Below the pieces are notes generated by a model. It did no database searches, was not told the origin of the DNA, and was given only the letters and a program-made list of their open reading frames with translations. Below are positions 38,850 through 63,644 of a stretch of DNA of 64,000 nucleotides, piece by piece. The stretch lies in assembly GCF_054482525.1 (NCBI RefSeq), contig NZ_CM137006.1. One strand, given 5' to 3'. The stretch's first letter is position 1. Each line of letters starts with the position of its first letter. A program made the translations under genes and the position numbers.

Positions 38850-38854
38850 GCTTG

Positions 38855-43069: not shown

Positions 43070-43099
43070 TTTGATTGGTATCGTTGGCCTTCAGGCTCG

Positions 43100-45235: not shown

Positions 45236-45583
45236 AGGACTCAGTATAAATCCAAGACAAAATCCCCCCGTGAATGCATTTAATAAAGACTTTAATGTTC
45301 TGTTAAAGGTGCGGATATAAAATGCATAAATAAAAGAAAGAGATCCGGTGATTATACCGGTGCAAAAATATGTTGTCCATTCAGGTACCGTATTTTGTAA
45401 AACAGTATAATGAGATATAGCGGATGCCCACAACATATACCAGCACAAACCACCTGTAATAAGATATGTTATTGCTGTGGAAAACCATTTCCTGTATTTA
45501 TTTTCAGGGTAATTGTTCTTGCCCATCAACGCATTTCCAGAATATTTAAAATAACCTGTCACCGAAACGGAATAAAGGCGCAA
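45200..45583 (-). CDS. hypothetical small membrane protein (127 aa)
   Basis: Hydrophobic segments (LITGGLCWYMLWASAI; GIITGSLSFIYAFYI; GGFCLGFIL); 42 bp downstream of the dGTPase gene on the same strand. Confidence 0.4.
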   Translation of the reverse strand: MRLYSVSVTGYFKYSGNALMGKNNYPENKYRKWFSTAITYLITGGLCWYMLWASAISHYTVLQNTVPEWTTYFCTGIITGSLSFIYAFYIRTFNRTLKSLLNAFTGGFCLGFILSPDESPNDFDKNH

Positions 45584-45625
45584 TAACCATAACGGGAAAA
45601 TATGCGCCTCTGGTAATCGGCAGTG

Positions 45626-46858: not shown

Positions 46859-47008
46859 ATTTCTTCCTTTCTGGAGCATGTTACCAAATCAGAATACCGG
46901 ATGAACAAAACTGGTGGCTACATCCTGTAGGGATTATGTATTAGTAAGCTCTGGCCATTAGTGCCATTTCAGGTTATGTGATCCTACCCACGTAATATGG
47001 ACACAGGC

Positions 47009-47875
47009 CTAAGCGAGGTTCTTGTTTTCAAATTGTTCCGGACTGAGGCCGCCACACCAACTGTGCCGCCGCCACCGATTGTAATCACATTCGATATAAT
47101 TAAACACCGTTGCCCGCATTATTTCCCGGCTGATAAAGTGTTCTCCATGGATACATTCCACTTTCAGCGAATGAAAGAAGCTTTCCACGCAGGCATTATC
47201 GTAGCAGCAACCTTTTGCGCTCATACTTCCACGCAGATTATGCCGCTTCAGTTGCGCCTGATAATCTGCTGAACAGTACTGGCCTCCACGGTCCGTGTGA
47301 ACGATAACGTTCCGGGGCCTCTTACGCCGCCACAGCGCCATCTGCAGGGCATCGCAGGCCAGTTGCGCCGTCATGCGTGGCGACATTGACCAGCCAATAA
47401 CGGCACGTGACCACAGGTCAATGACCACTGCCAGATACAGCCAGCCTTCATCTGTACGTAAGTACGTGATGTCTCCTGCCCACTTCTGGTTCGGGCCACT
47501 GGCGTAAAAATCCTGCTCCAACAGATTTTCTGACACAGGCAGGCCGTGTGCGCGGTAGCTGACCGGGCTGAACTTCCGGGAGGCCTTTGCCCTCAGTCCC
47601 TGACGGCGCAGGCTTGCCGCCACGGTTTTTACGTTAAAGGGGTAACCCTGAGCACGCAGTTCATCCGTCAGGCGTGGGGCACCGTAACGCTGTTTTGACC
47701 GGGTAAAAGCCGCGAGGACAACGCTGTCGCAGTGTTGGCGGAACTGCTGACGCGTGCTTATCCTTGTCCGCCGCTGACACCACGTATACCAGCCGCTGCG
47801 GGCCACCCGGAGCACGCGGCACATTGCTTTGATGCTGAACTCAGCCTGATGTTTTTCAATAAAGACATACTTCAT
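47009..47875 (-). CDS. insF: IS3 transposase OrfB
   Basis: 288-aa product matches IS3 OrfB as recalled. Confidence 0.9.
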
Positions 47876-48170
47876 TTCAGACGATTCGCAAAGTATGTCG
47901 CGGCCTTTTGGAGGATAGCCAGTTCCTCTGCCTGCTCCGCCAGTTGCCGCTTCAGGCAGGCATTTTCAGCGGCCAGTTCACTTTCACGCTCTGACGAACT
48001 CATTTGTTGCTGCAGTTTGCTGCGCCACGCATAGAGCTGTGATTCATACAGGCTGAGTTCACGGGCTGCGGCAGCAACACCGATGCGTTCAGCAAGTTTC
48101 AGGGCTTCACTGAGAAATTCAGGCGAATGCTGTTTACGGGGTTTTTACTGGTTGATACTGTTTTTGTCAT
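47871..48170 (-). pseudogene. insE: IS3 orfA with a 1-bp deletion in a poly-A run near codon 9
   Basis: Translation from ATG at 48170 gives MTKTVSTSKNPVNSIRLNFSVKP*; element is 1257 rather than 1258 bp; no minus-strand ORF >=60 aa in the track here. Confidence 0.6.
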
Positions 48171-48337
48171 GTGAGTCACCTCTGACTGAGAGTTTACTCA
48201 CTTAGCCGCGTGTCCACTATTGCTGGGTAAGATCAAGTCTTACTTACCCTGTGAACCATGTTGATATTGATACTATATTGACTATATGCCATACAGGTGG
48301 TAATGATTAGTTACTACCATACAGGAAAAGGTAGAAA

Positions 48338-49318
48338 ATGACTCTTTTGGTAACGGCTGAGTGTGTTGACGATCTGATAAACGATGTTCATCAAGCTATC
48401 CTAGCGGATGGACTCAGTAACGATCCTACAAAAGGATCAACTCTAGAGATTCTTGGTGCCTATCTTGTCCTTACCGACCCCCGCCGAAGAATAAGTAGAA
48501 CAGAATCCCGAGGAAAACTAATTAGTTGCTTAGGTGAATTTCTGTGGTATCTCTCAGCTCAGAACGATCTTGAGTTTATAAAACACTTCATACCACGTTA
48601 CGCTGAATCCGCTGAGTCAGATGGGAAAATACATGGTGGTTACGGGCCACGGTTGTTTAATATGCGTGGTTTATATAATCAGCTAAAAAATGTTATCAAC
48701 CTTTTGCAGGAGAAAAAACCTACCAGACGTGCAGTAATACAGCTTTTCGATGCCTCAGACTTGGTGCCCTCAAAAACTGAACAGCGAGAATACGTAGATA
48801 TTCCTTGTACAATATCTATGCAGTTTATTGTCAGATGTGAAGAGCTGCATCTATTTGTTTGTATGCGTTCTAACGATGCCTTTATGGGGCTGCCTCATGA
48901 TGTATTTGCGTTCACGATGCTACAGGAATTAGTTGCCCGCTTGATAGGATGCGAATTGGGTCACTATCATCACTTTGTATCCAGCCTACATCTCTATAAA
49001 AATGATTTAGAAAAAGTGAAGGCTCTTCAGAAAGAGGGGTTCATGAGCACCCTACCAGTCATGGGATCGATGCCTGAAATGCATTCCTTAGATGATATCT
49101 TACCCCTGCTTGAGGCAGAAAAAGCTCTTCGAGAGAATAAGGAATTTGATATTGACACTACTTCCTTGAATGACTACTGGAAGGATTTATTGCGTATATT
49201 AAAAATCCACTTTTTGTTACGTTCACATACACCCAACCACAAAGGACTAGCCTTCCAAGAGTTGGCTGCAATGAAAAATCAGGAATATCGGTTTATTTTT
49301 GAAGGAAGACTACAATGA
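48338..49318 (+). CDS. thymidylate synthase-fold protein (ThyA / dNMP hydroxymethylase family) with ~90-aa C-terminal extension
   Basis: Aligns by eye to ThyA: GSTLEILGAYLVL, ISCLGEFLWYL, LYNQLKNVINLLQEKKPTRRAVIQLFDASDL, DIPCTISMQFIV (Cys at catalytic position), CMRSNDAFMGLPHDVFAF, HLYKNDL. Confidence 0.7.
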   Translation: MTLLVTAECVDDLINDVHQAILADGLSNDPTKGSTLEILGAYLVLTDPRRRISRTESRGKLISCLGEFLWYLSAQNDLEFIKHFIPRYAESAESDGKIHGGYGPRLFNMRGLYNQLKNVINLLQEKKPTRRAVIQLFDASDLVPSKTEQREYVDIPCTISMQFIVRCEELHLFVCMRSNDAFMGLPHDVFAFTMLQELVARLIGCELGHYHHFVSSLHLYKNDLEKVKALQKEGFMSTLPVMGSMPEMHSLDDILPLLEAEKALRENKEFDIDTTSLNDYWKDLLRILKIHFLLRSHTPNHKGLAFQELAAMKNQEYRFIFEGRLQ

Positions 49319-50259
49319 AAAGACATAATCAAATCAGTCAGCTGGTTAGTAATTTGCAAAATTTTAGCCGCAATGAACACAACCTAAATGGCCTAAGTTC
49401 TCCTGCCTGCTTTGATGTTTTAGCCTGTCAGATTATCGACAGTATACGTCGTATACGCTATGTGGAAACTCTTGCATTACGGACCGATTATATGACTCCG
49501 TTACGAAAAGAGCCGAATTCTGATGTTTTTGATCCTCTCCGCGCTGCCTGCCTTTATCTTCGTGACAACAATTACGATGAAGCCTGCTGGCTGGTTTTCC
49601 TTGCCACACATTTCGGCAAGAGTAACAAAACCGGCTGGATTTTGTGTCGAGATATATACAGTGGACTCGGTACACAAACGTGGACATGGGATACGATAAC
49701 TGATGACTTTGCTGCTTTTGAACAATGGTTCGCCAGCGTCTCTGATGAGTTGACAGCTAACAGTAGCCTAAGACAATATGGTAACCATCGGAAATATGAA
49801 ACGAAGAAATATCACTCTCGTCGTTCAATACCTGCGGTTTTTCGCTCTTACATCGGATTCATTGGTGCTACACACAGTCATGAGGCTAGGTTTGCAGAGG
49901 CCAAGAGCTTTTCATCTTCACCAGAATCTTTATTCGAACTATTGTATTCAGGGCTAAATGCCGTGATCTCATTTGGACGAACCGCAAAATTTGATTACCT
50001 AACTATGCTCAAGAAAACGGGACTTCTGGATGTAGAGCCGGGTCATGCTTTTCTGAATGGAGCAACCGGGCCCCTTCAAGGAAGCCGGCTACTTTTCAGC
50101 AATAGCCGGACTGCTGGTGACACAATAGACGTATTGAATGAAAAACTAGCTGACCTTGCGGCAATTATTCCTGCACCCTACTTGAGAATGCAGGTTATTG
50201 AAGATGCGTTGTGCAACTGGCAGAAATCACCTGACCGTTATGTCTATTTCGGCGGCTGA
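49315..50259 (+). CDS. uncharacterised protein co-operonic with the TS-fold gene
   Basis: 314-aa ORF overlapping upstream gene by 4 bp (ATGA); no motif I can assign. Confidence 0.5.
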   Translation: MKRHNQISQLVSNLQNFSRNEHNLNGLSSPACFDVLACQIIDSIRRIRYVETLALRTDYMTPLRKEPNSDVFDPLRAACLYLRDNNYDEACWLVFLATHFGKSNKTGWILCRDIYSGLGTQTWTWDTITDDFAAFEQWFASVSDELTANSSLRQYGNHRKYETKKYHSRRSIPAVFRSYIGFIGATHSHEARFAEAKSFSSSPESLFELLYSGLNAVISFGRTAKFDYLTMLKKTGLLDVEPGHAFLNGATGPLQGSRLLFSNSRTAGDTIDVLNEKLADLAAIIPAPYLRMQVIEDALCNWQKSPDRYVYFGG

Positions 50260-50261
50260 TA

Positions 50262-51344
50262 TCAGACGATATCTTCTTTACGGAATCTCACTTTAAACCG
50301 ATTAAGGTGAGAAAAAGGTATATTACCTTCATGCTGCAAATATCCCAGTACGATCCCTTTGGATACCCCCATTTTCCTAGCTAACCGGATGATCTCTTTC
50401 CAATGCCGGACACCATAGCGACTAAGTTGCTGCCGGTATTCTTCTGGGATAAGAACATCAACGGCAAATTTATCTGCTTCCTTTTCCTCTTCCGACGAAA
50501 GACTATCTTTACCTTCTACGCGAACTCGGACAGCTTCATGCAAGATGAGATGCCCAATCTCATGAAACAGCGTAAACCAAAAATGGTCATCGGTCAGATA
50601 ACGGAAACTCATGACTAGGGTTGCGCGATCTGGTGTAAAAAAGCAGGTAGCACCACTTGCCCGACATCCCTTTGGCGTTGGCAACACAACGAGAGAAACT
50701 CCAGCAGTGGCGAGAAGGTCGCGAATGTAAGGGATAAAAATCCTCATGTCGGGTTCATTTGTAGCTTTGCGCAGTTCTGGCAACAATGCTATCAGCCCCT
50801 CTTTATCCCATACAGCACAGTTTTGGTTTGAGGTAAGTTGTGCAGCCCTAGTCAGCCACACCAAATCGGCCATAGGCTCGGTTGCCAGATTAAGAGATTT
50901 ACGAAAAGCGACCAAAGGAGCATCTGACTGAATTTTATAAAAAAAATCATTGACGGAATTTATTCCGAAAAACGATAGGCAGTGCTGGAATTTACTTTCC
51001 CGAGTTGTAGTTTTGGGGATCCAACCAAACTCCATCATATCACGTACAGGCAATGATTCGAGCCAATCATTATTCACTTTCTCGAGGTATCCAATTTGCT
51101 GGCGATAAGCGACTTCGCGCTTGATCCAGAAGTCTGTCGATACGTTGAATAACTCCTCAAGCTTACAAGCCAGAGACTCATTGAGTCGGATTTTTCCTTC
51201 AAGAAGTTGCTGACCCCGGATAAGAGACAATCCAATCCTCTTACTCAGTTCTTCACCAGAAAGCCCATGTTCATCCATTAGATCTATAATTGTATCACCG
51301 GGTGGAGATACCCAGTCAGGCTGGAAGTCCTGCGTAACTATCAT
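50262..51344 (-). CDS. XRE-family HTH fused to ImmA/IrrE-type zinc metallopeptidase (HigA-like antitoxin/regulator)
   Basis: N-terminal HTH (IIDLMDEHGLSGEELSKRIGLSLIRGQQLLEG), C-terminal HEXXH (FTLFHEIGHLILHE); overlaps upstream small gene by 4 bp. Confidence 0.65.
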   Translation of the reverse strand: MIVTQDFQPDWVSPPGDTIIDLMDEHGLSGEELSKRIGLSLIRGQQLLEGKIRLNESLACKLEELFNVSTDFWIKREVAYRQQIGYLEKVNNDWLESLPVRDMMEFGWIPKTTTRESKFQHCLSFFGINSVNDFFYKIQSDAPLVAFRKSLNLATEPMADLVWLTRAAQLTSNQNCAVWDKEGLIALLPELRKATNEPDMRIFIPYIRDLLATAGVSLVVLPTPKGCRASGATCFFTPDRATLVMSFRYLTDDHFWFTLFHEIGHLILHEAVRVRVEGKDSLSSEEEKEADKFAVDVLIPEEYRQQLSRYGVRHWKEIIRLARKMGVSKGIVLGYLQHEGNIPFSHLNRFKVRFRKEDIV

Positions 51345-51667
51345 TTCACGTCACCTATGAACACTAACCGTATCCGGCTAACTCGGGACCAGTTAATTGT
51401 ATTATCTTGATTTTTGGGCTGAACTGTATTCCCACAGACAAATCCCATTTTTACATCACCGAGAATGGTAATTGTAATACACTCTTCCCCATCCTCAAAG
51501 CAGACCTCCGGCGAACCTACGGGCAACAGTAATATGTTGTCTGTCACGGAAAGATCGGAAAGTCGCGAGCGTAGTCTTGATGCCACTTTGTCACCAAAGA
51601 TCTCATTTGCCTCATGCATACTCTCGCAAATAGTCCTTAACTTCTTGCTTTGAAAGGTAATGAACAA
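51341..51667 (-). CDS. HigB-like (killer-protein family) type II toxin candidate
   Basis: 108 aa; N-terminal KKLRTICESMHEANEIFGDKVASRLRSRLSDL resembles HigB-family pattern; toxin-first gene order. Confidence 0.5.
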   Translation of the reverse strand: MFITFQSKKLRTICESMHEANEIFGDKVASRLRSRLSDLSVTDNILLLPVGSPEVCFEDGEECITITILGDVKMGFVCGNTVQPKNQDNTINWSRVSRIRLVFIGDVK

Positions 51668-51810
51668 AATTATCCACTTTTATTTTTCTTGGTTGCTACG
51701 TTTATAGCAAACTCAACGCTCATTCACAAAATGAGATGTAGCGAATTAATGGACTCTGCACATATTAAATGTTAATGATGGACTTAAAATCACGGATTCG
51801 TAAGGGAAAC

Positions 51811-52077
51811 ATGAAAGGTAAACATCAAGACACTAAAGCCCTGTCTGACGTGCTAGCGGAAATGCAACGGCAGGATGCCAAATGGGGGGCAGACCGTAAT
51901 CAAGATCCTTTTATCTGGGGAGCGATTCTCGGAGAAGAGGTGGGAGAATTTCATCAGGCTGTCCTCCATGATCGTTTTGGTGGTAAAGCAGCCGGTACCA
52001 GTAGGGAGGAAGCAGTACAAATTGCTGCTGTTGCACTGCAAATCATCGAATATTATGATCGCGTAATAGATCGATAA
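51811..52077 (+). CDS. small MazG-like NTP pyrophosphohydrolase-like protein (tentative)
   Basis: AILGEEVGEFHQAV and REEAVQIAAVALQIIEYY resemble the MazG EExGE helix pair; start at internal Met of ORF 51769..52077. Confidence 0.35.
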   Translation: MKGKHQDTKALSDVLAEMQRQDAKWGADRNQDPFIWGAILGEEVGEFHQAVLHDRFGGKAAGTSREEAVQIAAVALQIIEYYDRVIDR

Positions 52078-52261
52078 ATTAGAATTAATCAACTAAGAGT
52101 CTTTTACACGCGAAGATGAACTCTGGCAGCCATCTACCTTCGTGGGCCTGTAGAACACATCTAATTGCAATACTCCCAGTTAATCACTAACCAGCCTCTC
52201 CAGTAAGGCTGGTCGATTAGGTTTAATTAAACAGATATAACAAGCAATTCACTTGGTATTA

Positions 52262-52335
52262 CGCGGTTCACACAGACTTCTTTAGTTGTGTCATATCCTA
52301 TAACTTTCAGAGGCTTATTTACGGTATTATCACGA
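52262..52335 (-). pseudogene. internal fragment (~75 bp) of a P4-type integrase gene
   Basis: ggttcacacagacttctttagttgtgtcatatcctataactttcagaggcttatttacggtatt parallels int at ~11095-11170; flanked by an ISL3-type end. Confidence 0.5.
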
Positions 52336-52930
52336 ACGGTGCAAAAGTGGCTCTTCCGCAACCTAGGTGGAGATTTTCATGCCAGTGGACTCATTACCCT
52401 CTGCCTAAGTAGTTCAAATCCGGCTCGACCATACATCAGATGTTTCAGCATCTTCAGGCGATTTACATGACCTTCGACAACACCGTTACTCCAGCGGCTG
52501 CTGGTTGCCTCACATATAGCCGCAGCATCAGCTTCCATCCCCGCAGCCACGCGCCGAAGTTCTGCTGAACCGTTTTCGTGGACTCGAGTGAACCAACTGC
52601 TTAGATTTGATTTATTTGGGGTTTTCAGAATACGGTAGAACTCAAGTACTAGTTGCTGCGCTATTTTCAGCGCCGGTTCTTTTTCACACATCAGACTAAT
52701 AAATCGGGAAGCATAATTTTCTTCACCCCTGATTATTATCCAGGGCATCAACCAGCGGCTTACCCGGGACACTGAAGGAAGTCTGGCGGCAGTAGTAACT
52801 GGTGGGTTCCAGCCTTTACGCCATTTGGCAACAGCATCCCTGACGATGGTTTCACTGCCTGTAACCCCCGGGCCACCATTTCCCGCCATATCCAGTCGCT
52901 GGTGTGCTGAATTGGTCATGTATGAAGGAA
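52336..52930 (-). mobile_element. ISL3-family IS remnant (3' part of transposase gene and one terminal repeat)
   Basis: ORF 52377..52919 ends with ISL3-type C-terminus WSNGVVEGHVNRLKMLKHLMYGRAGFELLRQRVM; terminal sequence ggctcttccgcaa at ~52336. Confidence 0.55.
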
Positions 52931-53081
52931 GATATCAATGGTGGTATCTCCCTTTCAAAAGGAAGTGAAAAGCTTGATGCCTGCTGCCAGGCAATCAATA
53001 TTACGTGCTTTTAACGACTATCCTAAATGGTGGTAGCTATGCAGAGCTCCCGGTCCTAGCGCTGGGAGCTTATCGCTTATC

Positions 53082-53158
53082 TTTACCGTAAGCGTAAACG
53101 GACCGCCGTATGTAGCCATTAAACCAGTATTGGTAACGTAGATACCCACCTTTTCAAA
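53082..53158 (+). mobile_element. isolated IS66-family terminal repeat (~75 bp), same end and orientation as 33183..33255
   Basis: tttaccgtaagcgtaaacggaccgccgtatgtagccattaaaccagtattggtaacgtagatacccaccttttcaaa, ~90% identical to the 33.2-kb copy. Confidence 0.4.
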
Positions 53159-53495
53159 AGGGAAGTGGATAAAAGATAGCGAAAATGCGAAGAGTTGATT
53201 AATGCATTGAAACAAAATTCATTAATGATGAACTTGGAGAAAAGCTCCATCGTTTTATTGGCTCAAAAAACATATCCCATAGATGATCAGCCATACCTTC
53301 ATTGGTTAGCAAGGTATCCTGTGAGTAGCCATGGCTGAAGATGCCCATTGATGGGCGAAAACCAAGGATCTGACCGTTAGAGCAGTTATGTCGTTAAACA
53401 CATCACCACCATATGCCATCCGGCTCACTTCGTCGGCCAAATTAGTGTGATATTCTTTCCAGAAATGCTGTTGTATCCACGACATAAGGCGATGA

Positions 53496-56400
53496 TTGAT
53501 GGAGCAGTCTCTCAATTTTGAAATGTTGCGCAGCCAGTGGCCGGAACTGGCTGAACTCGCGTGTATGGCGGAACGCTATGTTCACTCCGATCCGGAAAGT
53601 TGTCTGGTCAAGCTGCGCAACTACACCGAATTGATGGTGCGCTGGTTGTATCGTCAGGAGCGGTTGCCGGAAGGTATTAAGGCTAATCTTTACGATTTAA
53701 TGAATGCTGATGTCTTTACCAGCATGATGCCGGAAGCCATCATCATGAAAATGGATGCGCTGCGTATCCATGGCAACCGTGCCGCGCACGGCGGACGTAT
53801 CAAAGCTAAAGATACTTACTGGCTGCTCAAAGAAGCGTATTTGTTGGGAATTTGGCTGTATGTTCGCTACGCCCACGGTAATGTTGATGACTGCCCCAAA
53901 TTTACACTCCCTCCATTAACACAATCTTCAGGTCGTGCAGATGAAAAACGTCTGGAAGATGCAATCAGGGCTCAGGATGAAAGCCGTGAGCGCGAACTGG
54001 CGCTGCAACGCGCACTACAGCAAGAACAGGAAAAGGCCGAACACCTCACTCAACGCCTGAATGAAGCCAGAGCGCGTAACCAGCATGTTGCCGATATTCT
54101 CTCTATTGATGAAGCGGAAACCCGCCGTCGCCTGATTGACTCTCGCCTGCTTGCTGCTGACTGGAATGTAGGCGAAGGCCTTAAAAATACCGATCAGGTT
54201 ACGCAGGAACATCCCGTTAAAGAACAACCTACCGCGACCGGAGACGGTTATGCGGACTATGTCTTGTGGGATGAGGCACACAAACCGCTGGCGGTGGTGG
54301 AAGCAAAAAAAACCAGCGTCAATGCCGAGCAAGGACGAATTCAGGCCCGGCTGTATGCAGACTGGCTGGAAAAAGAATACGACCAGCGTCCGATCATCTT
54401 CTACACCAACGGCTATGATATCTGGCTGTGGGATGACCATAAAACTCATGGTTATCCCCCGCGTCGGGTGTTTGGCTTCTACAGCAAGGAAAGCCTGCAA
54501 TATCTTATTCAACAGCGTGAAACCCGTCTTCCGCTGAACAGTGTGCCGCACGTAAAAGATAACGAAGGTAAGGCCGTTGCCGGACGTTTGTACCAGCTTG
54601 AAACCATTGCCCGTGTCAGCGAGCGGTTTACCAACAAATACCGGCAATCGCTAATTGTTCAGGCTACGGGTACAGGCAAAACCCGCGTGGCAATAGCGCT
54701 AAGCAAACTAATGATTGATGCCCGCTGGGTAAAACGCGTCCTGTTTCTTTGCGACCGCAAGGAACTACGTAAACAGGCGGCGAATGCCTTTAATCAATTC
54801 ACCAATGAGCCGCTGTATGTGGTCGGGAAATCGAAAAAAGCAGACAGGCAGAATGCTAGGATCTACATCGCCACCTATCCTGGTATGATGAAAATCATGG
54901 ACCATTTCGATGTTGGTTATTTCGATTTGATCATCGCCGATGAATCCCATCGCTCTATCTACAACGTTTACGGCGATCTGTTTAAGTATTTTGATGCCCT
55001 CCAGATTGGCCTGACGGCCACGCCGATTGACATGGTGAGTAAAACCACTTTCGGCCTGTTTGGTTGTGAAGGACGTATTCCTACCGCCAACTACAGCCTG
55101 GAAGATGCCATCGCCGATAACAATCTGGTTCCCTATGAGGTTGTCACGCACACCACAGAATTCCTGCGCGAAGGCATCAAACGGGAGAAATTAAGCGACG
55201 CACAAATCCGCGAGCTGGAAGAACAAGGCATAGATCCCAATACGCTGGAGTTTGATGGCAAGGCGCTGGATGAGGCGATCTACAACAAAGACACCAACCG
55301 CTATATCCTGCGTAACCTGATGGAAAATGGCCTGAAAGATCGGGACGGCCAGTTGCCAGGTAAAACCATCATTTTCGCCCGTAACCACAAACACGCGCTG
55401 CTGTTGAATGAATTATTCGACGATATGTACCCGCAGTTTGCCGGGCGCTTCTGCCAGGTCATCGACAATTACGATCCCCGCGCCGAGCAACTGATTGATG
55501 ATTTTAAAGGGCTGGATGAAAGCACCAACAAAGAGCTGACCATCGCTATCTCCGTTGACATGCTCGATACCGGTATTGATGTCCCGGAAATTGTGAATCT
55601 GGTCTTTGCCAAACCGGTCAAATCAAAAGTGAAGTTCTGGCAGATGATTGGCCGTGGTACGCGCCTCTGTCCGGGGTTGTACGGTTACGACGATAACGGC
55701 AAACCTCTGGATAAACAGAAATTCCGCATTTTCGATCACTGGGGCAATTTTGAGTATCACGAACTGCATACCGAAGAGGCCGAAGTCACAGCGACAAAAT
55801 CGCTTGCACAAAAACGCTTCGAAGCGTGGGTTATGCTGGGGGCCGCTGCGCAACGTAAATTCGACAAACAGGCGGTGGATTTAGTTGCTCACCAGCTACG
55901 CGAGCAAATCAATGCACTGGATGAAAAGTCGATTGCCGTCCAGGAAAAGTGGCATCAAAAAGCGCAGTACAGCGATGAAAAAGTGCTGCGCCAGCTTTCC
56001 CCGAAAACACAGCAGGATTTGCTATCTGTCCTGGCCCCGCTGATGCAGTGGCTGGACGTGCGCGGGCAAAGCGACGCTATGCGCTTTGATATGGATATTC
56101 TGGCGGCGCAAACTGCCCGTTATACCAACCCGGAAGAGCTGGATGTGCTCTGGCCGGTCATCGTCGAAAAAGTGGAGCGCCTGCCGCCGCATTTGGCGCA
56201 GGTCCAACAGCAAGGACCGCGGATCAATCAGCTTCGTGATTTAGGCTGGTGGAAGCAGGCCAGCCTGGAAGAGCTGGAAGATATCCGCATTCATCTGCGC
56301 GGCATCATGCACCTGATGGAAAAAGACGCGACGCCGAAATTTGGTTCGATACAGGTGGATATTACCGAAGATGCGAACCTGATTCAGACGGAAAACCGCA

Positions 56401-56912
56401 AAACCAACATCCGCTCGATTGACTTCAAACTCTATCGCCAGCAGGTGCAGGGAGCGCTGGAGCCGCTGTTCCAGCAAAATCCGGTGCTGAAGAAAATCCG
56501 CAACGGCGAGCCTGTGACGCAAAGCGAGCTGGATGAACTGGCTAAACTGGTGCTGATCCAGAACCCTAACGTTGATATCCGGGCACTGAAAGAGTTCTAC
56601 CCGCAGGCGACCGCCAGCCTGGATAAACTATTGCGTACCATCATCGGGATGGACAGCGACGCGGTGGAAGTGCGCTTTGCTCAGTTCGCCGCTGATAACA
56701 GCCTGACCAGCCAGCAATTGCGCTTCCTGTCATTGCTGAAAAACCACATTCGCGATTACGGCACCATTGAAATGCGGCAGCTCTTTGAACAGCCTTTTAC
56801 GCATATCCACAACGAAGGCGTTACCGGTGTGTTCCCTGATATAGAGCAGATCGCCCGCCTACAAAAGATAGTCGAAGAGCTGGGTGTTGTGACCGACGCA
56901 GCAACGGTATAA
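53496..56912 (+). CDS. hsdR: type I restriction enzyme R subunit (HsdR)
   Basis: 1138 aa; helicase motifs QATGTGKTRVAIAL and IIADESHRS; N-terminal domain typical of HsdR. Confidence 0.9.
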   Translation: MMEQSLNFEMLRSQWPELAELACMAERYVHSDPESCLVKLRNYTELMVRWLYRQERLPEGIKANLYDLMNADVFTSMMPEAIIMKMDALRIHGNRAAHGGRIKAKDTYWLLKEAYLLGIWLYVRYAHGNVDDCPKFTLPPLTQSSGRADEKRLEDAIRAQDESRERELALQRALQQEQEKAEHLTQRLNEARARNQHVADILSIDEAETRRRLIDSRLLAADWNVGEGLKNTDQVTQEHPVKEQPTATGDGYADYVLWDEAHKPLAVVEAKKTSVNAEQGRIQARLYADWLEKEYDQRPIIFYTNGYDIWLWDDHKTHGYPPRRVFGFYSKESLQYLIQQRETRLPLNSVPHVKDNEGKAVAGRLYQLETIARVSERFTNKYRQSLIVQATGTGKTRVAIALSKLMIDARWVKRVLFLCDRKELRKQAANAFNQFTNEPLYVVGKSKKADRQNARIYIATYPGMMKIMDHFDVGYFDLIIADESHRSIYNVYGDLFKYFDALQIGLTATPIDMVSKTTFGLFGCEGRIPTANYSLEDAIADNNLVPYEVVTHTTEFLREGIKREKLSDAQIRELEEQGIDPNTLEFDGKALDEAIYNKDTNRYILRNLMENGLKDRDGQLPGKTIIFARNHKHALLLNELFDDMYPQFAGRFCQVIDNYDPRAEQLIDDFKGLDESTNKELTIAISVDMLDTGIDVPEIVNLVFAKPVKSKVKFWQMIGRGTRLCPGLYGYDDNGKPLDKQKFRIFDHWGNFEYHELHTEEAEVTATKSLAQKRFEAWVMLGAAAQRKFDKQAVDLVAHQLREQINALDEKSIAVQEKWHQKAQYSDEKVLRQLSPKTQQDLLSVLAPLMQWLDVRGQSDAMRFDMDILAAQTARYTNPEELDVLWPVIVEKVERLPPHLAQVQQQGPRINQLRDLGWWKQASLEELEDIRIHLRGIMHLMEKDATPKFGSIQVDITEDANLIQTENRKTNIRSIDFKLYRQQVQGALEPLFQQNPVLKKIRNGEPVTQSELDELAKLVLIQNPNVDIRALKEFYPQATASLDKLLRTIIGMDSDAVEVRFAQFAADNSLTSQQLRFLSLLKNHIRDYGTIEMRQLFEQPFTHIHNEGVTGVFPDIEQIARLQKIVEELGVVTDAATV

Positions 56913-56975
56913 TACGCACATGACAAGCCCCGGCAGCGGGGCTTTTGTATTTAAAACAGGATATAAAAGCTAACA

Positions 56976-58610
56976 ATGATCACTGGTGACTTAAAAAGTA
57001 AAATCGACGGCCTGTGGGAAGATTTCTGGGTGGGTGGTATCACCAACCCGCTGACCGTAATCGAACAGATCACCTATCTAATGTATTCCCGGATGCTGGA
57101 TACTCAGGAACAACGCGACGAGAAGCGTAAACAAATCGCGGGTATTGATTTTAAACCGCGTTTTGCACCAGAACAGCAGGAGTTCCGTTTCAGTCACTAT
57201 AGCAATCTTGGCTCGGATGAGATGATGGAAGTGGTGCGCGATGGTGTATTCCAGCATTTTCGTCAGCTCGGCCAGGCTGATGCGTCGAAGGTAACGCTGC
57301 TGGGCAACTTTATGAAAGATGCCCGTCTGGAGATTGTTAAGCCTTCATTGCTGACCAAAGCGGTTGAGGTGATCAAAAACCTGCCATTGGATCGCGGCGA
57401 CACCAAAGGCGACCTTTACGAATACCTGTTAAGCAAGCTGACCACTGCCGGAATCAACGGCCAGTTTCGCACACCGCGCCACATTATCCGCACGATGGTT
57501 GAAATGATGGAGCCGAACCCCGCCCGCGGCGAGACGATTTGCGATCCGGCCTGCGGCACCGGTGGCTTTCTGGCAACCAGCTATGAATATCTACTGGAGA
57601 AGTACAGCTCGCTGGAATCCATTCATACCGAGATTGGCACCAACGAACGTGGTGAGCTGGAAGAGCAAAAAATCTTTACCGGCGATCTGTTGACCCCGTG
57701 GCGTAACCATGTGGATAACAATATGTTCCACGGTTACGACTTTGACACCACAATGTTACGTATCGCCGCCATGAACCTGATTATGCACGGCGTGGAAGCG
57801 CCGGATATCCACTATCAGGACACCATGAGCCAGAGCTTCAGCACAAACTTCCCGCAGGCCAGTAAAAACGCTTTCAACCTGATTCTGGCAAACCCGCCGT
57901 TTACCGGTTCACTGGACGAAGAAGATATCGACTCCACGCTGTCGGCAATGGTGAAAACCAAAAAAACCGAACTACTGTTCCTGGCGCGTATTCTGCAAAT
58001 GCTGAAAGTGGGCGGGCGCAGTGCCACTATCGTGCCGCAGGGCGTGCTGTTTGGCTCCAGTAAGGCGCACCAGTCACTTCGCAAAACGCTGGTGGAAGAT
58101 AACCAACTGGAAGCGGTGATCAACCTGCCTTCCGGCGTATTTAAACCTTACGCTGGCGTGGCGACGGCGATCCTGATCTTTACCAAAGGCGGTCAGACGG
58201 ACGAGGTCTGGTTCTACGATCTGCAAAATGATGGCTACAGCCTGGATGACAAGCGTAACCCAATTAAAGACAACGACCTGCCGCATCTGCTGGCAAGCTG
58301 GAAGCATTACCGTACTTTACGCGGGCTGCCGGTTGATAACTTTATGGGTGAGAAGTTAGCCTCGTTGCTGAAACAGCAGTACCCGGAAGGGATTGATGCT
58401 GGCGTTGATTTTAAAGATCGCACTCAGGCGGCGTTTATAGTGCCAAAAGAAGATATTGCTGCCCAGAAATACGATCTCTCTATTAATCGTTATAAAGAAG
58501 TGGTGTATCAGGCTGAGGAGTATGAAGATCCGAAGGTGATATTGAAGCGGTTAAAAGATCTGGAAAAAGAGATTCTGGCGGATCTGGATGAGCTGGAGGG
58601 GATGCTGTGA
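56976..58610 (+). CDS. hsdM: type I R-M N6-adenine DNA methyltransferase subunit (HsdM)
   Basis: 544 aa; SAM motif [10 protein letters not shown] and catalytic NPPF. Confidence 0.9.
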
Positions 58611-59749
58611 AAAAAAATCAATTGGTCACACTTGGCAAACATATAGACATATTGTCCGGGTGTGCATTCCCTTCAAGTGGATTCAATAGGAACAATGGTG
58701 TTCCACTAATCCGTATTAGAGATATTCTTTCAGGAAAAACCGAAACTTATTATGAAGGCAGTTATGACTTAAAATATCTTATTAAAAAAGGTGATTTACT
58801 AGTTGGGATGGATGGAGATTTCAACCGTGAGTATTGGAAAGGTACTGATGCGTTGTTAAATCAACGGGTATGTAAAATTACGCCAAATCCTGAAACACTT
58901 GATAAAAATTTTCTATATCATTTCTTGCAAAAGGAATTGGATAAAATTCATGCTACAACAGATGTTGTGACTGTAAAACATTTGTCTGTAAAAAAGATAC
59001 AAGATATTAAAATTAGGCTTCCTTCATTAAAAGAACAAAAACGCATTGCTGCTATTCTTGATAAAGCTGATGCTATACGCCAAAAGCGCGAACAAGCCAT
59101 CAAACTGGCTGATGATTTTTTGCGGGCTAAGTTTCTAGAGATGTTTGGAACTCCTGCAAACAACATACATCGTTTCCCGAAAGGAACGATTCGCGACTTG
59201 GTTGATTCAGTAAATTATGGAACTTCAGCAAAAGCCTCTATTGATTCTGGTGAATATCCTATATTACGGATGGGTAATATAACATATCAAGGTAGGTGGG
59301 ATTTTACAGATTTAAAATATCTTGATCTCAGTGTAAAAGAAAAGGATAAATATTTGGTTAAAGAAGGCGATCTTCTTTTCAATCGTACTAACAGTAAGGA
59401 ACTTGTTGGTAAAACAGCTGTGTATGAAGAAGACAGGCCTATGGCATTTGCTGGATATTTAATCCGCGTTAGACCTAATTCTATCGGAAATAACTACTAT
59501 ATTTCAGGGTATCTTAATTCCATCCATGGCAAAATCACATTGATGAATATGTGTAAAAGTATTGTTGGCATGGCTAATATTAATGCACAGGAATTGCAGA
59601 ATATAGAGATATTAATCCCACCTAAGCATCTACAAGATGAGTATGAGATTATTTATAAAAAAATAAAAAAAGGACTAAGCATTTATGATAAAAGCGCAAT
59701 GCAACTTCAACTTTTAGCATCAAACCTATCGAATAAATATTTCATGTAA
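58607..59749 (+). CDS. hsdS: type I R-M specificity subunit (HsdS)
   Basis: 380 aa; two variable target-recognition regions separated by conserved LPSLKEQKRIAAILDKADAIRQK; 4-bp overlap with hsdM; AT-rich. Confidence 0.85.
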   Translation: MKKNQLVTLGKHIDILSGCAFPSSGFNRNNGVPLIRIRDILSGKTETYYEGSYDLKYLIKKGDLLVGMDGDFNREYWKGTDALLNQRVCKITPNPETLDKNFLYHFLQKELDKIHATTDVVTVKHLSVKKIQDIKIRLPSLKEQKRIAAILDKADAIRQKREQAIKLADDFLRAKFLEMFGTPANNIHRFPKGTIRDLVDSVNYGTSAKASIDSGEYPILRMGNITYQGRWDFTDLKYLDLSVKEKDKYLVKEGDLLFNRTNSKELVGKTAVYEEDRPMAFAGYLIRVRPNSIGNNYYISGYLNSIHGKITLMNMCKSIVGMANINAQELQNIEILIPPKHLQDEYEIIYKKIKKGLSIYDKSAMQLQLLASNLSNKYFM

Positions 59750-59757
59750 GGTTCATT

Positions 59758-61380
59758 ATGAAATTAACTAAACTTGTACTTGAAAATTTCAGATCTGTTA
59801 GAGAGCGGCAGGAAATTGATTTTGCACCTGTAACATTACTATTGGGGCCAAACAGCGCGGGCAAGACTACTATTTTAATTGCATTATTTTATCTTCAACA
59901 AATATTAGACCGTGAGCAGTGTGATCCTATATATTTAGAAGCTATGGGGAACAGGCGCATAGATGGATTTAGATCTCTAGTCCATAATGGGGATCTGAAT
60001 AATGTAATTACTATTGGTATCGGTTTCGATCCTGAACAAACAATAGGTGTAGAATATAAAACATATTTAGAAGAACTTGGTGATATTTTCGATATTCATT
60101 TTATAAAAATGAAAGACATTGCAGATGAAACTGAAAAGGTTTATGTAGAGTTTAAAATCGCATGGTCACAATTGCACAGAGCAGCATATATAAAGAACTA
60201 TGCTGTTTCTATAAATAATGAATTTATTGGAGAGCTAAGTAATGATGAGTATACTAAATCATCTTTAGTAAATAGATTGAACTTTACTCATCCGTTGCTT
60301 CTTCCTATTGATTATAATTTATGGCTTGAATCTATTGATAAGGAAGGATTAGATACGATTGCCAGTGAATTTGAAATATCTTTAAATGACTTAATTCCTG
60401 GCTTAGAACGTAATAAAAGTGGTGCAACAGAGCGAGTAAAAACTGTTGATTATATATTTGAAGAAGATAAAGAAAAACCAATGTTTCCTGTTTTTTTAAA
60501 GACGAAAATTGGTGCGTTACCTCAACTGGGAAGAACTGTTGATACAAATTTGAAAGTTTTTGATATATCCGAGCCAGTTGAGTATTTTAATCGAGATATA
60601 ATCACCAGAGTGCTAACGCAAGTTTTTACTTCTCCGTTAGATAAATTAAATAATTATTTAAAGGCTAGCGTATCTATTGGACCGTTAAGAATTATACCTG
60701 ATTCTTCATTTACGCCAAATCCTTATCCAGAACAAAATGGATGGTTTGATGGTACATCAGCATGGGATAAGCTGTGTTTATCTCAACAAAATGATAGTGA
60801 TTTGATTAAAAAAGTAAGTGATTGGTTTTCCAATAGAGATAAACTAAACACTAATTATAATATATTTAGTGGAGGAGAATTTGATATAAAAACCTCCCCT
60901 CAACTTTTAGGTCTGAAAGATAATGTTTACTTCTGTAAAATAGATTCAAGCCAAATGTTATTTCCAAATCAAGTCGGTGTCGGATTAACTCAGATAGCAC
61001 CTCTTATTATTGCAGCCAATATAGTTCAGGATGGATTAATTGCTATAGAGCAGCCTGAGCTACATATTCATCCCGCTTTACAACTCGCTGTAGGTGATCT
61101 GTTTACCCAATATCCCCTTGATGTTAAAAGACCTATGTTTTTAGTCGAAACACATAGTGAGCACATTTTGCTTCGAATTTTAAAAAGAATTAGACAAACA
61201 ACGGACAATGAATTACCTGAATCAAATTACCCAGTAAAACCTGATTTTATATCAGTGATCGTTTTCGAGGATAATAATGGTTCGACTGTTACTAGGAAAA
61301 TAGATATTACTGATGATGGTGACTTCAAACAAAAATGGCCCAAAGGTTTCTTCGAAGAAAGAAGGGGAGAGCTTTTTTAA
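59758..61380 (+). CDS. ABC/SMC-type AAA ATPase of anti-phage type (AbiLi/PtuA/AriA-like)
   Basis: 540 aa; N-terminal LENFRSV...LLLGPNSAGKTTIL, C-terminal IEQPELHIHP and LVETHSEHILLR; no nuclease domain visible; starts 9 bp after hsdS. Confidence 0.7.
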   Translation: MKLTKLVLENFRSVRERQEIDFAPVTLLLGPNSAGKTTILIALFYLQQILDREQCDPIYLEAMGNRRIDGFRSLVHNGDLNNVITIGIGFDPEQTIGVEYKTYLEELGDIFDIHFIKMKDIADETEKVYVEFKIAWSQLHRAAYIKNYAVSINNEFIGELSNDEYTKSSLVNRLNFTHPLLLPIDYNLWLESIDKEGLDTIASEFEISLNDLIPGLERNKSGATERVKTVDYIFEEDKEKPMFPVFLKTKIGALPQLGRTVDTNLKVFDISEPVEYFNRDIITRVLTQVFTSPLDKLNNYLKASVSIGPLRIIPDSSFTPNPYPEQNGWFDGTSAWDKLCLSQQNDSDLIKKVSDWFSNRDKLNTNYNIFSGGEFDIKTSPQLLGLKDNVYFCKIDSSQMLFPNQVGVGLTQIAPLIIAANIVQDGLIAIEQPELHIHPALQLAVGDLFTQYPLDVKRPMFLVETHSEHILLRILKRIRQTTDNELPESNYPVKPDFISVIVFEDNNGSTVTRKIDITDDGDFKQKWPKGFFEERRGELF

Positions 61381-62276
61381 TGTTCTACGAATGCGCCATT
61401 TCACCAGAGGCTTTGTTTGAGATCGCAATTGATCGGAGAAATTATCGTGACTTCATAAAAGGATTTTCTACGGGCGGTAACTTTCTCTATAGTGAATTAC
61501 CAAAGCTGAAGAGAAATAAAAAACAATTGCTTGGGCTATTAAATGCTAATCATAGTGAACTTCAAAAAAAACGATTAGAGGACCTTATTATTTTTTTGAA
61601 AAATAATAAGGTTAGTAGGGTTTATGATTATGTTGGTGACATGTCATGGTCAGATAACATCTCTGCTGTAAATCGAATTGAACAATTTGATCATGTAGTG
61701 AGTTCTACTCCTTGTGATAACCTTGATGTAACTAATATAGATGATTTCTTTGGGTTAAATTATGCTCGGCAAAAAATTGTTGCTAGAATTGCTGAGGATA
61801 TGATATCTATAATCTCACGCTTATTAAAAACATCAGAGCATATTATTATAGTTGACCCATACTTTAGTGACAAACAAAGATGGTGGAATGTATTTATTTC
61901 ATTACTTAGCGTTAGTGCTAATAACTCTTATAAAAAAAATTTAAAGATAGATGTTATATTTGATGGGAGTAAAGAAAACTCCCCAACGGTGAATTATTTG
62001 GCTAATAAGTTGAACCGCGAAAACCTTGTCTTTCCAGACGATTTTAAATTATCAGTAACATTTAAGTCTTTAACTTCTCGCGAGGGTAATGAATGTCTGC
62101 ATAATAGATATGTTCTTTCTAATGTTGCTGGAGTTTGTTTCATGCATGGTTTAGATGAGGGAGAAGGAACGGATGATGTCTCAATTTTGTCGAAAGAGGG
62201 ATATAATAAAAGATGGGAACATTACACTACGAATAATGTTTTTGATTTAATAGAAGAGCGTGAAGTTATATGTTAA
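61380..62276 (+). CDS. uncharacterised partner of the ATPase (candidate effector)
   Basis: ATG overlaps ATPase stop (TAATG); alternative in-frame start at 61335; 298 aa, AT-rich, no assignable motif. Confidence 0.5.
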   Translation: MFYECAISPEALFEIAIDRRNYRDFIKGFSTGGNFLYSELPKLKRNKKQLLGLLNANHSELQKKRLEDLIIFLKNNKVSRVYDYVGDMSWSDNISAVNRIEQFDHVVSSTPCDNLDVTNIDDFFGLNYARQKIVARIAEDMISIISRLLKTSEHIIIVDPYFSDKQRWWNVFISLLSVSANNSYKKNLKIDVIFDGSKENSPTVNYLANKLNRENLVFPDDFKLSVTFKSLTSREGNECLHNRYVLSNVAGVCFMHGLDEGEGTDDVSILSKEGYNKRWEHYTTNNVFDLIEEREVIC

Positions 62277-62507
62277 GTATTTCCCTTACTGTTTTCAATT
62301 AAATCCTACAAACTTATTAGGACCCTTTAAAATTTATTCAACACGCCAATAAAAAATCTAATTCTATTAATCTTGACCTGGTCTATCAAAATGATAGACC
62401 AGGCTTCTGTTATCTACATTACTTCTAGTGAAATAGCCAACCAATCGTCCCTATAAGGCAGGTTAAATAGTTTTAATTTAGCAAATTTGATAAACAACTC
62501 ACTCGCC

Positions 62508-62690
62508 ATTACCCCGATTGATCTTCGCATAGTCAAACGGCGTAATCGCTCTCTCCCGATTGGCATCCAGAAAATCTGCCCACCACTGCAGCATCAGCTT
62601 GCGCTCATCCAGATGCTCCGCTTTATGGATATACGCTGCCTGCACTGAGTTACGTCCATGTGGCTCATCTGACGTTCAGCCGCTTTATCT
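62508..62690 (-). pseudogene. 3'-terminal remnant of a P4-type integrase gene
   Basis: agaaaatctgcccaccactgcagcatcag...gctccgctttatggatatacgctgcc...catctgacgttc parallels the 3' end of int (10859-11060); frame broken. Confidence 0.55.
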
Positions 62691-62906
62691 CGTGCTGTTC
62701 TGGTCTCAATACTTCCATGCCGTTGCAATTACCTCTTAAACCATTCCTTATCATTTTCATGTCTTCGATAAGAAATCTTCATCATTCATGATCGATTTTG
62801 TCGATCGATTCGATCGAATTTTCTCTTTTTACCTTGTCTTTTGCATGGTTTTAAAATGAGCAACCTTCTTTATCGGGTGGGGTAAGAACCAACGGAGATG
62901 ATTGAA

Positions 62907-63644
62907 ATGAAAAAGGTTATTGCTGTTTCAACACTTGCAATGGCAGGCATGTTTTCGGCCCAGACTCTGGCTGATGAGAACAAAACTGGCTTTTATGTGA
63001 CCGGTAAAGCCGGTGTTTCTGTTATGTCACTTTCAGAGCAACGTTTCGTTGATGGTGAAGGGGCATGGGCGGATAAATACAAAGGCAGTGACAAAAGTGA
63101 TACGGTTTTTGGCGCAGGCCTTGCGGTGGGATACGATTTTTATCAGCACTACAATGTGCCGGTGCGTACTGAAGTGGAGTTTTATGGCCGCGGTAACGCT
63201 GAATCAAAATATCGTCTGAGTTATTGGGAAAGTGCCGGTGGTGCCGAGTTCGATGATGCACAGAACAAGCTCAGTGTAAACACGCTGATGCTGAATGCGT
63301 ATTATGATTTCAGAAACAGCAGTGCATTCACGCCATGGATATCTGCTGGTCTGGGTTATGCACGGGTTCATCATAAAACTTCGTACATATATACCGATAA
63401 CAGCCCGGCAGGCAGTGAAGTTTATTCAGCTTCAGCGTCAAAATACGAAAACAACCTGGCATGGAGCCTGGGTGCCGGTGTTAAATACGATGTGACGCAG
63501 GATTTCAGCCTTGACCTCAGCTACCGGTATCTGGATGCAGGGGATTCCACTCTGACTTATAAAGATGAGGATGGTGCTAAATATAAATCCTCTGTTGATG
63601 TCAGAAGTAACGAGTTTATGTTAGGTGCAACATATAACTTCTGA
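62907..63644 (+). CDS. Hek/Hra/Tia-family (OmpX/Ail-like) outer-membrane beta-barrel adhesin/invasin
   Basis: Signal peptide MKKVIAVSTLAMAGMFSAQTLA, alternating aromatic beta-strands, C-terminal ...MLGATYNF; start at second ATG after GGAG. Confidence 0.65.
   Translation: MKKVIAVSTLAMAGMFSAQTLADENKTGFYVTGKAGVSVMSLSEQRFVDGEGAWADKYKGSDKSDTVFGAGLAVGYDFYQHYNVPVRTEVEFYGRGNAESKYRLSYWESAGGAEFDDAQNKLSVNTLMLNAYYDFRNSSAFTPWISAGLGYARVHHKTSYIYTDNSPAGSEVYSASASKYENNLAWSLGAGVKYDVTQDFSLDLSYRYLDAGDSTLTYKDEDGAKYKSSVDVRSNEFMLGATYNF

Follow-up and report, generated by a model that had tools for sequence, protein, structure and literature searches.

Integrase-only defense islands at tRNA hotspots have been described by Hochhauser et al. 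2023 (PMC10121019), and the islands integrated at pheV, GI-pheV, have been reported to carry 19-bp direct repeats and modules separated by insertion sequences (IS), and to evolve by module insertion, deletion, and recombination (PMC11537424). Here, we analyzed a stretch of 64,000 nucleotides (nt) from contig NZ_CM137006.1 (RefSeq assembly GCF_054482525.1), hereafter called the window, in which a type I restriction-modification (R-M) operon, hsdR-hsdM-hsdS, together with the genes of an ATPase and a partner protein, lies between two fragments of integrase genes. An earlier note, made from the sequence alone, had proposed that the two remnants bracket a single island with a P4-type integrase, that this integrase has decayed, and that the R-M and defense cargo is now fixed in place. 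We favor another account, to which we assign a probability of about 0.8: the segment at 53157-62683 (~9.5 kb) is the integrase-proximal part of a leuX-type island with a P4-family integrase and is now a passenger in GI-pheV, and the left fragment is the scar of another integrase. Of the earlier proposal, the decayed P4-type island stands for the right-hand stub; the symmetric bracket and the fixed cargo were not borne out.

The closest relatives of the segment are P4-family islands at leuX, in Escherichia coli W, S22EC, and Citrobacter koseri. They share with the window the integrase lineage of the right-hand stub (90-91% nt identity) and the position of the defense cargo directly behind the integrase stop codon, as well as the hsdRM backbone (95.6% in E. 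coli W), the five-gene operon (C. koseri and Kosakonia), and the TIR/WYL flank. In contrast, the window holds this integrase as a frameshifted stub of 185 bp with no adjacent tRNA-Leu or attachment-site (att) repeat, the distal backbone is deleted, and the segment lies inside a pheV island. The integrase of phage P4, which targets leuX, has the same three-domain architecture as the leuX integrase of E. coli W, the closest intact E. coli relative of the stub; the two proteins are 57.4% identical over 97% of the length (E 4e-155), which justifies the label P4-type. Unlike in phage P4, the annotated genes of the relatives' islands are CP4-like (DUF932, RadC, YeeU/CbtA) and not satellite genes, with the proviso that no search was aimed at P4 genes.

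The features that the enclosing island, in turn, shares with GI-pheV of the tia- and pap-containing intP4.3 type (PMC11537424) are its location at tRNA-Phe, a P4-type integrase, direct repeats of 19 bp, modules separated by IS, tia, remnants of pap, and a yee/CP4-44-like module. The terms "restriction", "pseudogene", and "truncated" are not mentioned in PMC11537424, so the R-M/ATPase module and the internal integrase scars are apparently undescribed there. Both integrase-only defense islands at tRNA hotspots and recombining modular GI-pheV islands are documented, and the present case is ordinary island mosaicism that leaves the current understanding of island evolution unchanged. It offers a worked example of how the defense cargo of a small tRNA island becomes an immobile-looking module in a large virulence and resistance island, with an integrase pseudogene marking the old edge and the intact form preserved in another genus.

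Intact relatives of the segment at leuX

In C. koseri (loci L019 and L020), the gene order is TIR, hsdR, hsdM, hsdS, ATPase, partner, integrase, tRNA-Leu(CAA), ahr, yjgR, lptG, lptF, pepA, holC, and valS. The integrase at this leuX locus is uninterrupted, 422 amino acids (aa) long, and contains all three domains. Kosakonia cowanii (L016) has an arrangement like that of C. koseri: positions 7666-11311 of L016 match window positions 59045-62683 at 89.6% identity in a single unbroken alignment that runs through hsdS, the ATPase gene, the partner gene, the hairpin region behind it, and the 3' end of the integrase gene, and the colinear homology ends exactly at the breakpoint of the stub. Positions 2021-7222 of the same locus match window positions 53406-58610 (hsdR-hsdM) at 92% identity. 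The intergenic region between partner and integrase is 81% identical to that of C. koseri and 89% identical to that of Kosakonia, and it is unrelated to that of E. coli W.

The leuX island of E. coli W has an intact integrase followed by an SBD-HNH endonuclease, a 5'-nucleotidase, two hypothetical proteins, hsdS-hsdM-hsdR, a WYL gene, a GTPase, and a CP4-like backbone. Its hsdR-hsdM block, taken together with the 247 nt that precede hsdR, matches that of the window at 95.6% identity over 5359 nt. The leuX island of S22EC carries the same integrase lineage as the stub (91%) and the same TIR/WYL flank with a different type I system, and both flanks of the 53157-62683 segment are homologous to it. 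At the left edge, positions 53157-53495 are made up of what is left of the intergenic region between WYL and TIR, the terminal 128 nt of a TIR-domain gene, and the region upstream of hsdR. The S22EC island matches 53252-53379 at 93% identity with the 3' end of its TIR coding sequence and matches 53159-53245 at 84%. E. coli W matches 53157-53251 at 83.5%, and 53252-53495 falls within the 95.6% block common to W. Intact islands of the kind that the earlier note suggested looking for in other genomes do therefore occur, as leuX integrase-partner-ATPase-hsdSMR in C. koseri and as leuX integrase followed by hsdSMR in E. coli W; together with Kosakonia and the right stub, they support its view that a P4-type island with a now decayed integrase was the source of the R-M and defense cargo.

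In E. coli W, the 3' end of leuX and ~50 nt downstream are repeated before a second integrase (L007 24130-24523). This is a tandem array of two defense islands at leuX, with a tandem logic like that inferred for the left fragment.

The right integrase stub

The stub (62499-62683, minus strand) preserves ~185 bp from the 3' terminus of a leuX-type P4-family integrase gene, corresponding to about codons 362-422 and the stop codon, and the Prokaryotic Genome Annotation Pipeline (PGAP) labels it in identical genomes as a pseudogene, "integrase, frameshifted, missing N-terminus". The window contains a sole intact integrase (10859-12121, minus strand; 420 aa with Arm-DNA-bind_3, Phage_int_M, and Phage_integrase domains), which we searched against the whole 64 kb as DNA (blastn) and as protein (tblastn). 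Besides the gene itself, exactly two places gave significant matches, and all remaining matches had E values of at least 0.07. One of the two is the stub, where 62518-62677 matches nt 1087-1247 of the intact gene at 76% identity (E 3e-26) and, as protein, aa 371-416 with 37 of 46 residues identical (E 2e-20). The other is the left fragment (E 1e-11). Both stretches are thus integrase-derived and lie on the minus strand like the intact gene, as the earlier note had stated, and the coordinates it gave (52262-52335 and 62508-62690) were only a few bases off.

A 1-nt deletion between 62654 and 62655 shifts the frame of the stub. Its nearest intact relatives are the leuX integrases of S22EC (91%) and E. 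coli W (90.5%). Upstream of the 62683/62684 junction, DNA that precedes the tia-like gene stands in place of the 5' ~85% of the integrase gene, and beyond 62683, the identity to any intact integrase is 46-48%, which is the random level. About the last 60 codons are left of the three-domain architecture, around the motif AAYIHK; the architecture is intact in the C. koseri L019 integrase and in the window's own. Since the arm-binding, core-binding, and most of the catalytic parts are gone, the stub cannot recombine. It does not adjoin a tRNA gene, as the integrases of its relatives in C. koseri, Kosakonia, E. coli W, and S22EC do; no tRNA gene was found in the window, and a k-mer search for leuX and pheV att 13-mers gave none near either scar. 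With both integrase copies at 52-63 kb being fragments and no tRNA-derived repeats nearby, the segment is not an excisable unit, and the sole att-type repeat in the window (12319-12337) belongs to the enclosing GI-pheV. Between the stub and the convergent partner gene lies a terminator-like hairpin with a 12-bp stem (62377-62403, plus strand).

The left integrase fragment and its junction

The left fragment (52271-52340, minus strand) is a snippet of about codons 318-339 of a P4-type integrase gene, cut on both sides and left unannotated by PGAP. It matches nt 948-1018 of the intact integrase at 80% identity over 71 nt and, as protein, aa 318-339 with 15 of 22 residues identical (E 2e-5; VRDNTVNKPLKVIGYDTTKEVC versus ISENTVNKALRVMGYDTTQEVC). 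The fragment spans only 60-70 bp and escaped annotation, and one might take its likeness to an integrase for chance or low-complexity noise. We give this notion practically no weight: apart from the blastn and tblastn E values, the match is in frame over 22 codons and colinear with the GYDT..EVC motif, and the fragment matches ~1760 E. coli integrase genes at identities of 80-90%. The closest kin are the window's own integrase (82%) and then the pheV integrase of F41 (78%), whereas the leuX integrases, to which the right stub is 90-91% identical, share only a 17-nt local match with it. No relatives above 84% identity were found by blastn in E. coli genomes or plasmids and no match in phages, and a codon-degenerate pattern for NKPLKVIGYDTT had no matches in 100,044 species-representative genomes.

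The fragment is abutted by the 27-bp terminal inverted repeat, beginning at 52343, of an ISL3-family (ISEc38-like) remnant (52343-52893, minus strand), in agreement with the earlier description of a fragment cut by an ISL3-type end. All that is left of the element is this one terminal repeat and about a third of the transposase gene, from its 3' end. Over 52336/52343-52893, the identity of the remnant to full-length ISEc38-like copies is 94%, and its repeat matches both ends of a full-length copy (locus L014). The open reading frame (ORF) at 52377-52919 (minus strand, 180 aa) corresponds to the C-terminal part of an ISL3 transposase (DDE_Tnp_ISL3, E 4e-10; NF033550, E 5e-28), of whose domain ~110 C-terminal residues are left, so that the IS is incomplete, with the N-terminal part and the second end gone. 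Outside the inverted repeat, 12 of the 13 nt at 52330-52342 are shared with the flank of that full-length copy, an unrelated one in strain ETEC1746, and the right edge of the left fragment is therefore ambiguous, from 52329 to 52342 (~11 bp); the likeness reflects either an IS end longer than the 27-bp repeat or a strong target preference.

The ISL3 remnant is followed by junction filler (52894-53156). Its first 186 bp (52894-53079) are present only in genomes with this same structure, and it includes a 78-bp dispersed repeat (53080-53157) that recurs beside IS66, IS4, IS110, IS3, and traE in many E. coli chromosomes and plasmids. An Rfam scan of 51.5-64 kb gave as its sole match a sub-threshold one to the AfaR small RNA (53070-53166, minus strand; 31.8 bits against a gathering score of 100). 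The truncated ISL3 copy, the 186 bp of unique filler, and the dispersed repeat part the left fragment from the R-M segment. In every context listed, the exact MazG-like protein encoded to the left has the same hsdR operon to its right, and the ORF of the ISL3 remnant is called in most of them; none of these contexts places the MazG-like protein beside an intact integrase elsewhere.

Integrases of such islands occur singly, at the tRNA-proximal end, with the cargo behind their stop codon. Because the left fragment lies on the minus strand, its integrase would have served the leftward module (MazG/XRE-M78/ThyA-like/dGTPase). To judge from its sequence affinity and its strand, the left fragment is the scar of a different P4-type integrase and not the other boundary of the R-M cargo, a caution that an integrase fragment is not always the boundary of the genes adjoining it.

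On the face of it, the two fragments represent non-overlapping and nearly adjacent parts of an integrase gene (nt 948-1018 and nt 1084-1269) on the same strand, as would be expected of one gene split by an R-M cassette or some other element. On the minus strand, however, the more 5' piece should have the higher coordinates, and it is found ~10 kb lower; with the order of the pieces reversed, they cannot be one insertion-split gene. Moreover, the right fragment is 91% identical to leuX integrases, to which the left one has only its 17-nt local match, and the integrase gene of C. koseri and Kosakonia is uninterrupted, its 3' end and the cargo being colinear. We consider a split gene very improbable.

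It is also unlikely, though less so, that the two remnants are the ends of one decayed P4-integrase island whose R-M cargo is immobile without an integrase. The fragments do lie on the same strand and flank the R-M genes, no att repeats are found nearby, and the stub is non-functional (frameshift, ~85% of the gene gone). However, such islands have one integrase, which is tRNA-proximal, and the intact relatives carry it on the right side only, with TIR, WYL, and backbone on the left. The two fragments also differ in their nearest relatives, and the left one lies beyond the junction of ISL3 and filler. Finally, islands at selC and pheV with backbones of ~90% identity share a block, left scar included, at 99.6% identity, and the stub is found at three tRNA loci. 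The claim that the remnants bracket one island is accordingly not upheld: only the right stub belongs to the R-M cargo, and the left fragment represents another integrase lineage beyond the ISL3/deletion junction.

Further to the left, 48338-50259 (plus strand) holds a thymidylate-synthase-like gene and, behind it, an aGPT-Pplase3/ADDT gene (PF18746, E 5e-90), which are enzyme types of phage thymidine hypermodification. Their neighbors at 45626-46879 (minus strand), 50262-51344 (minus strand), and 51811-52077 (plus strand) are of the XRE/M78 (PD-Lambda-2_B-like), MazG-like, and defense-type dGTPase kinds. The thymidylate-synthase-like/aGPT-Pplase3 module could be a prophage leftover or a defense module based on nucleotide or DNA modification.

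Spread of the stub and exchange of cargo

Among 5426 complete E. coli genomes, no intact integrase was found with more than ~92% identity to the stub. Among the matches listed, all those with at least 93% identity are annotated integrase pseudogenes, and the ATPase partner always adjoins the pseudogene stub in E. coli. Some 250 genomes hold the present structure at an identity of at least 99.7%. A 27-mer spanning the right stub junction had no matches in species representatives, so the scar looks restricted to non-reference E. coli at that level. The identical stub breakpoint was found in four other islands, those of CAVP766 (selC), 23CRST038 (pheU), F41 (pheV), and strain 165 (pheV), where the tia-like and phosphoethanolamine (PEtN)-transferase neighbors follow the stub as well. 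The cargo behind the stub is SBD-HNH/5'-nucleotidase/CN-hydrolase in 23CRST038, TerB/ATPase/helicase in F41, and a PEtN-transferase pseudogene in strain 165. The stub is old and widespread, and such stubs can serve as landmarks for delimiting modules and defense-gene slots in E. coli tRNA islands.

The selC island of CAVP766 is 99.6% identical to the window over at least positions 45234-54765, including the exact left fragment, while the CP4-like backbones of the two islands are only ~89-94% identical. The ATPase protein accession is identical in CAVP766 and in E. coli strain W2-5, a near-identical counterpart of the window described below. The gene order is unchanged through to the stub, except for a different hsdS and an ISEcp1/CTX-M-15 insertion at ~62419, and the stub and its right flank are near-identical to those of the window up to ~62860. 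The contrast between the 99.6% block and the ~89-94% backbone indicates that the block with both scars has been exchanged between islands at different tRNA genes. The proposal that the cargo is fixed in place consequently fails, although the segment itself lacks both an integrase and att sites; the same stub breakpoint, too, is present at selC, pheU, and pheV. The block would now move either when related islands recombine homologously or when the tRNA-proximal integrase carries it along with the whole genomic island. The ISEcp1-blaCTX-M-15 unit of CAVP766 (L003 ~9137-11870) sits in the intergenic region between partner and stub, just 3' of the hairpin at 62377-62403.

The alleles of the stub diverge more toward the cargo than toward the breakpoint. 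For F41, the identity is 67% in the 3' half of the stub, rises to 82% in the 5' half, and is 90% in the flank that adjoins it. Compared with the leuX integrases, the window stub shows 96.8% identity in the half next to the cargo and 86% in the other half (3/93 versus 11/77 mismatches, Fisher p = 0.011), a pattern that is no more than suggestive of cargo swaps recombining within the stub. One could imagine that the stub is kept because it is useful, the conserved integrase 3' end and hsdM/hsdR acting as homology arms through which autonomous leuX islands exchange defense cassettes with the tia islands that bear the stub at pheV, pheU, and selC. This would be in keeping with the gradient of identity along the stub, with a breakpoint that is identical even though stub alleles differ by up to ~20-30% in the integrase part but by only ~10% in the adjoining flank, with at least four different cargos directly behind the stub, and with the low G+C of the cassette. 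On the other hand, the counts are small and the alleles few, no swap was caught between near-identical backgrounds, and a scar that is retained neutrally, in a mosaic island that undergoes ordinary recombination, accounts for the observations equally. We regard such a use of the stub as a tentative addition to the leuX-type origin of the segment, with which it is compatible.

Proposed history of the segment

From the observed homologies, breakpoints, and intact relatives and the presence of the block at two tRNA loci, we infer the following order of events. The intact form comprises tRNA-Leu(CAA), the integrase gene, a short hairpin-bearing intergenic region, a convergent hsdR-hsdM-hsdS-ATPase-partner operon, TIR and WYL genes, and a CP4-like backbone. 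This leuX-type island would have been truncated at both ends and have become a passenger inside a composite tia-type tRNA island, GI-pheV. On the right, the 5' ~85% of the integrase gene would have been replaced at 62683/62684 by DNA from upstream of the tia-like gene, leaving the 185-bp frameshifted stub. On the left, everything distal, from the TIR gene body through WYL as far as the att site, would have been lost at ~53157, where filler DNA and the truncated ISL3 are joined. In the simplest history, the ISL3 element inserted into a second, neighboring integrase, after which a single deletion would have taken most of the IS together with the 5' part of this second integrase and the distal part of the leuX-type island, and a further event the 3' part of the left-fragment integrase.

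Several points weigh against this account. An intact E. coli island with exactly this cargo was not found, and the intact versions, which reside in other genera, are only 88-92% identical (protein) and so would be relatives of the direct donor. The left fragment is 60-70 bp long with closest kin at 82-84%, and it is from its lineage affinity and orientation that we place it in a probable separate, neighboring element. The account does not extend to the filler at 52894-53156, and the order that it gives to the ISL3 insertion and the deletions is tentative. The activity of the R-M system and of the ATPase pair, finally, is a prediction.

The hsdRMS, ATPase, and partner genes

The three R-M genes are intact, uninterrupted ORFs in one operon with the domains expected of HsdR, HsdM, and HsdS by Pfam, NCBIfam, and PADLOC, which agrees with the earlier note's statement that a complete type I system lies between the fragments. 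hsdR (53496-56912, plus strand) encodes 1137/1138 aa with ResIII, HSDR_N, C-terminal EcoEI_R_C, and N-terminal DUF4145 matches in Pfam and a PADLOC REase_I match (E 2e-273). hsdM (56976-58610, plus strand) encodes 544 aa with N6_Mtase (E 2e-60) and HsdM_N, and hsdS (58607-59749, plus strand; G+C 0.34) encodes 380 aa with Methylase_S in two stretches, that is, two target-recognition domains. Only a 104-nt central region of hsdS is kept in comparison with E. coli W.

The ATPase gene (59758-61380, plus strand; G+C 0.33) encodes a 540-aa ABC-type ATPase (AAA_15, OLD-ABC-like; AAA_15 E 1e-22). Its best PADLOC match is PDC-M55A (1e-40), an uncharacterized candidate, followed by NsnB (3e-37) and AriA (6e-22), and its N-terminus matches OLD and PtuA in the Protein Data Bank. 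The partner gene (61380-62276, plus strand) encodes 298 aa. What the earlier note called an ATPase pair therefore contains one ABC ATPase, while the partner is no ATPase: it shows a phospholipase D (PLD)-like fold with weaker PIN-like matches, and we predict a nuclease-like effector of the PLD superfamily that may carry a PIN-like domain. A first AlphaFold model of the partner, built on a shallow alignment (predicted local distance difference test score, pLDDT, 48.6), was discarded. Close homologs of the partner were found in Enterobacteriaceae only.

The hsdS, ATPase, and partner genes have a G+C of 33-34%, compared with 51-53% for hsdR, hsdM, and the stub, and this low G+C marks them as an exchangeable cassette in a conserved frame. 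In a Salmonella copy of the five-gene operon, no integrase stub lies behind it. The R-M system and the ATPase/partner pair are presumably active defense genes, and the hsdRMS-linked ATPase/PLD-like pair, conserved in four genera, is a candidate defense module. By analogy with PrrC of the EcoprrI locus, a comparator for a back-up abortive-infection arm of a type I system, the pair might conceivably form a PrrC-like back-up arm, with the stub and hsdM/hsdR as the arms of a defense-cassette exchange slot; we put this combined picture forward as speculative, and as somewhat less probable than the use of the stub as a homology arm by itself.

Among known defense systems, Menshen (NsnABC), PARIS (AriAB), and Septu (PtuAB) are alike in that the window ATPase matches the NsnB, AriA, and PtuA models. 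The PLD-superfamily fold and weaker PIN-like matches of the partner further resemble the inPIN-plus-effector layout reported for NsnC in Menshen, which has been reported to neighbor type I R-M systems (PMC12065111). Membership in Menshen was nonetheless rejected: no NsnA (ParB/DUF262) was found among the ORFs of 53-62 kb, the NsnB model covers the C-terminal part of the ATPase only, and the NsnC match is marginal (E 0.003). PARIS was rejected for lack of an AriB (DUF4435/TOPRIM), the partner being PLD-like with weaker PIN-like matches, and Septu for lack of a PtuB (HNH).

The enclosing island

The window represents E. coli chromosomal DNA. Window positions 33500-64000 are 99.997% identical to E. 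coli strain W2-5 (NZ_CP032989), where the counterpart of the hsdRMS segment lies inside a large island integrated at pheV. To the right of the segment, W2-5 carries a tia-like outer membrane protein (OMP), PEtN-transferase, and tetratricopeptide repeat (TPR) genes, IS remnants, and a raffinose-type sugar operon, and, ~17.6 kb to the right, an intact 394-aa integrase followed by tRNA-Phe beside yqgA. An exact 19-nt copy of the pheV 3' end, an att-type repeat found by k-mer search at 12319-12337 (minus strand), lies directly 5' of the intact integrase at 10859-12121. At this repeat, the composite GI-pheV ends on its far side and a second element begins in tandem: with the pheV copy directly upstream of an intact P4-type integrase, we conclude that the second element integrated in tandem into the attR of the composite island. 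The integrase and tRNA-Phe of W2-5 and the repeat in the window together give the island the features of GI-pheV, namely integration at pheV, a P4-type integrase, and a repeat of ~19 bp from the tRNA 3' end.

The Tia/Hek-like OMP gene (62898-63644, plus strand; OMP_b-brl in Pfam, annotated "tia" in strain 165) is the constant right-hand neighbor of the integrase stub and lies outside the decayed island. OMP, PEtN transferase, TPR protein, and a tRNA-proximal integrase recur as neighbors at selC, pheU, and pheV. To the left of the segment follow MazG-like, XRE/M78, and thymidylate-synthase-like plus aGPT-Pplase3 genes, IS3, dGTPase, pap remnants, and an ISCR2-type resistance module (sul2-strAB-tetA-floR).

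Positions 13281-32128 hold a backbone of the CP4-44/yee type (DUF932, RadC, YeeU/CbtA, DUF4942, inovirus Gp2-like), which is ~89-94% identical to the distal selC island of CAVP766 and is interrupted in the window by extra insertions. At 35000-44000, where the G+C is high (0.58-0.64), sul2, aph(3'')-Ib, aph(6)-Id, tetR/tetA, and floR are found with ISCR2/IS91-type remnants, and this resistance module is inserted beside the pap fimbrial remnants.

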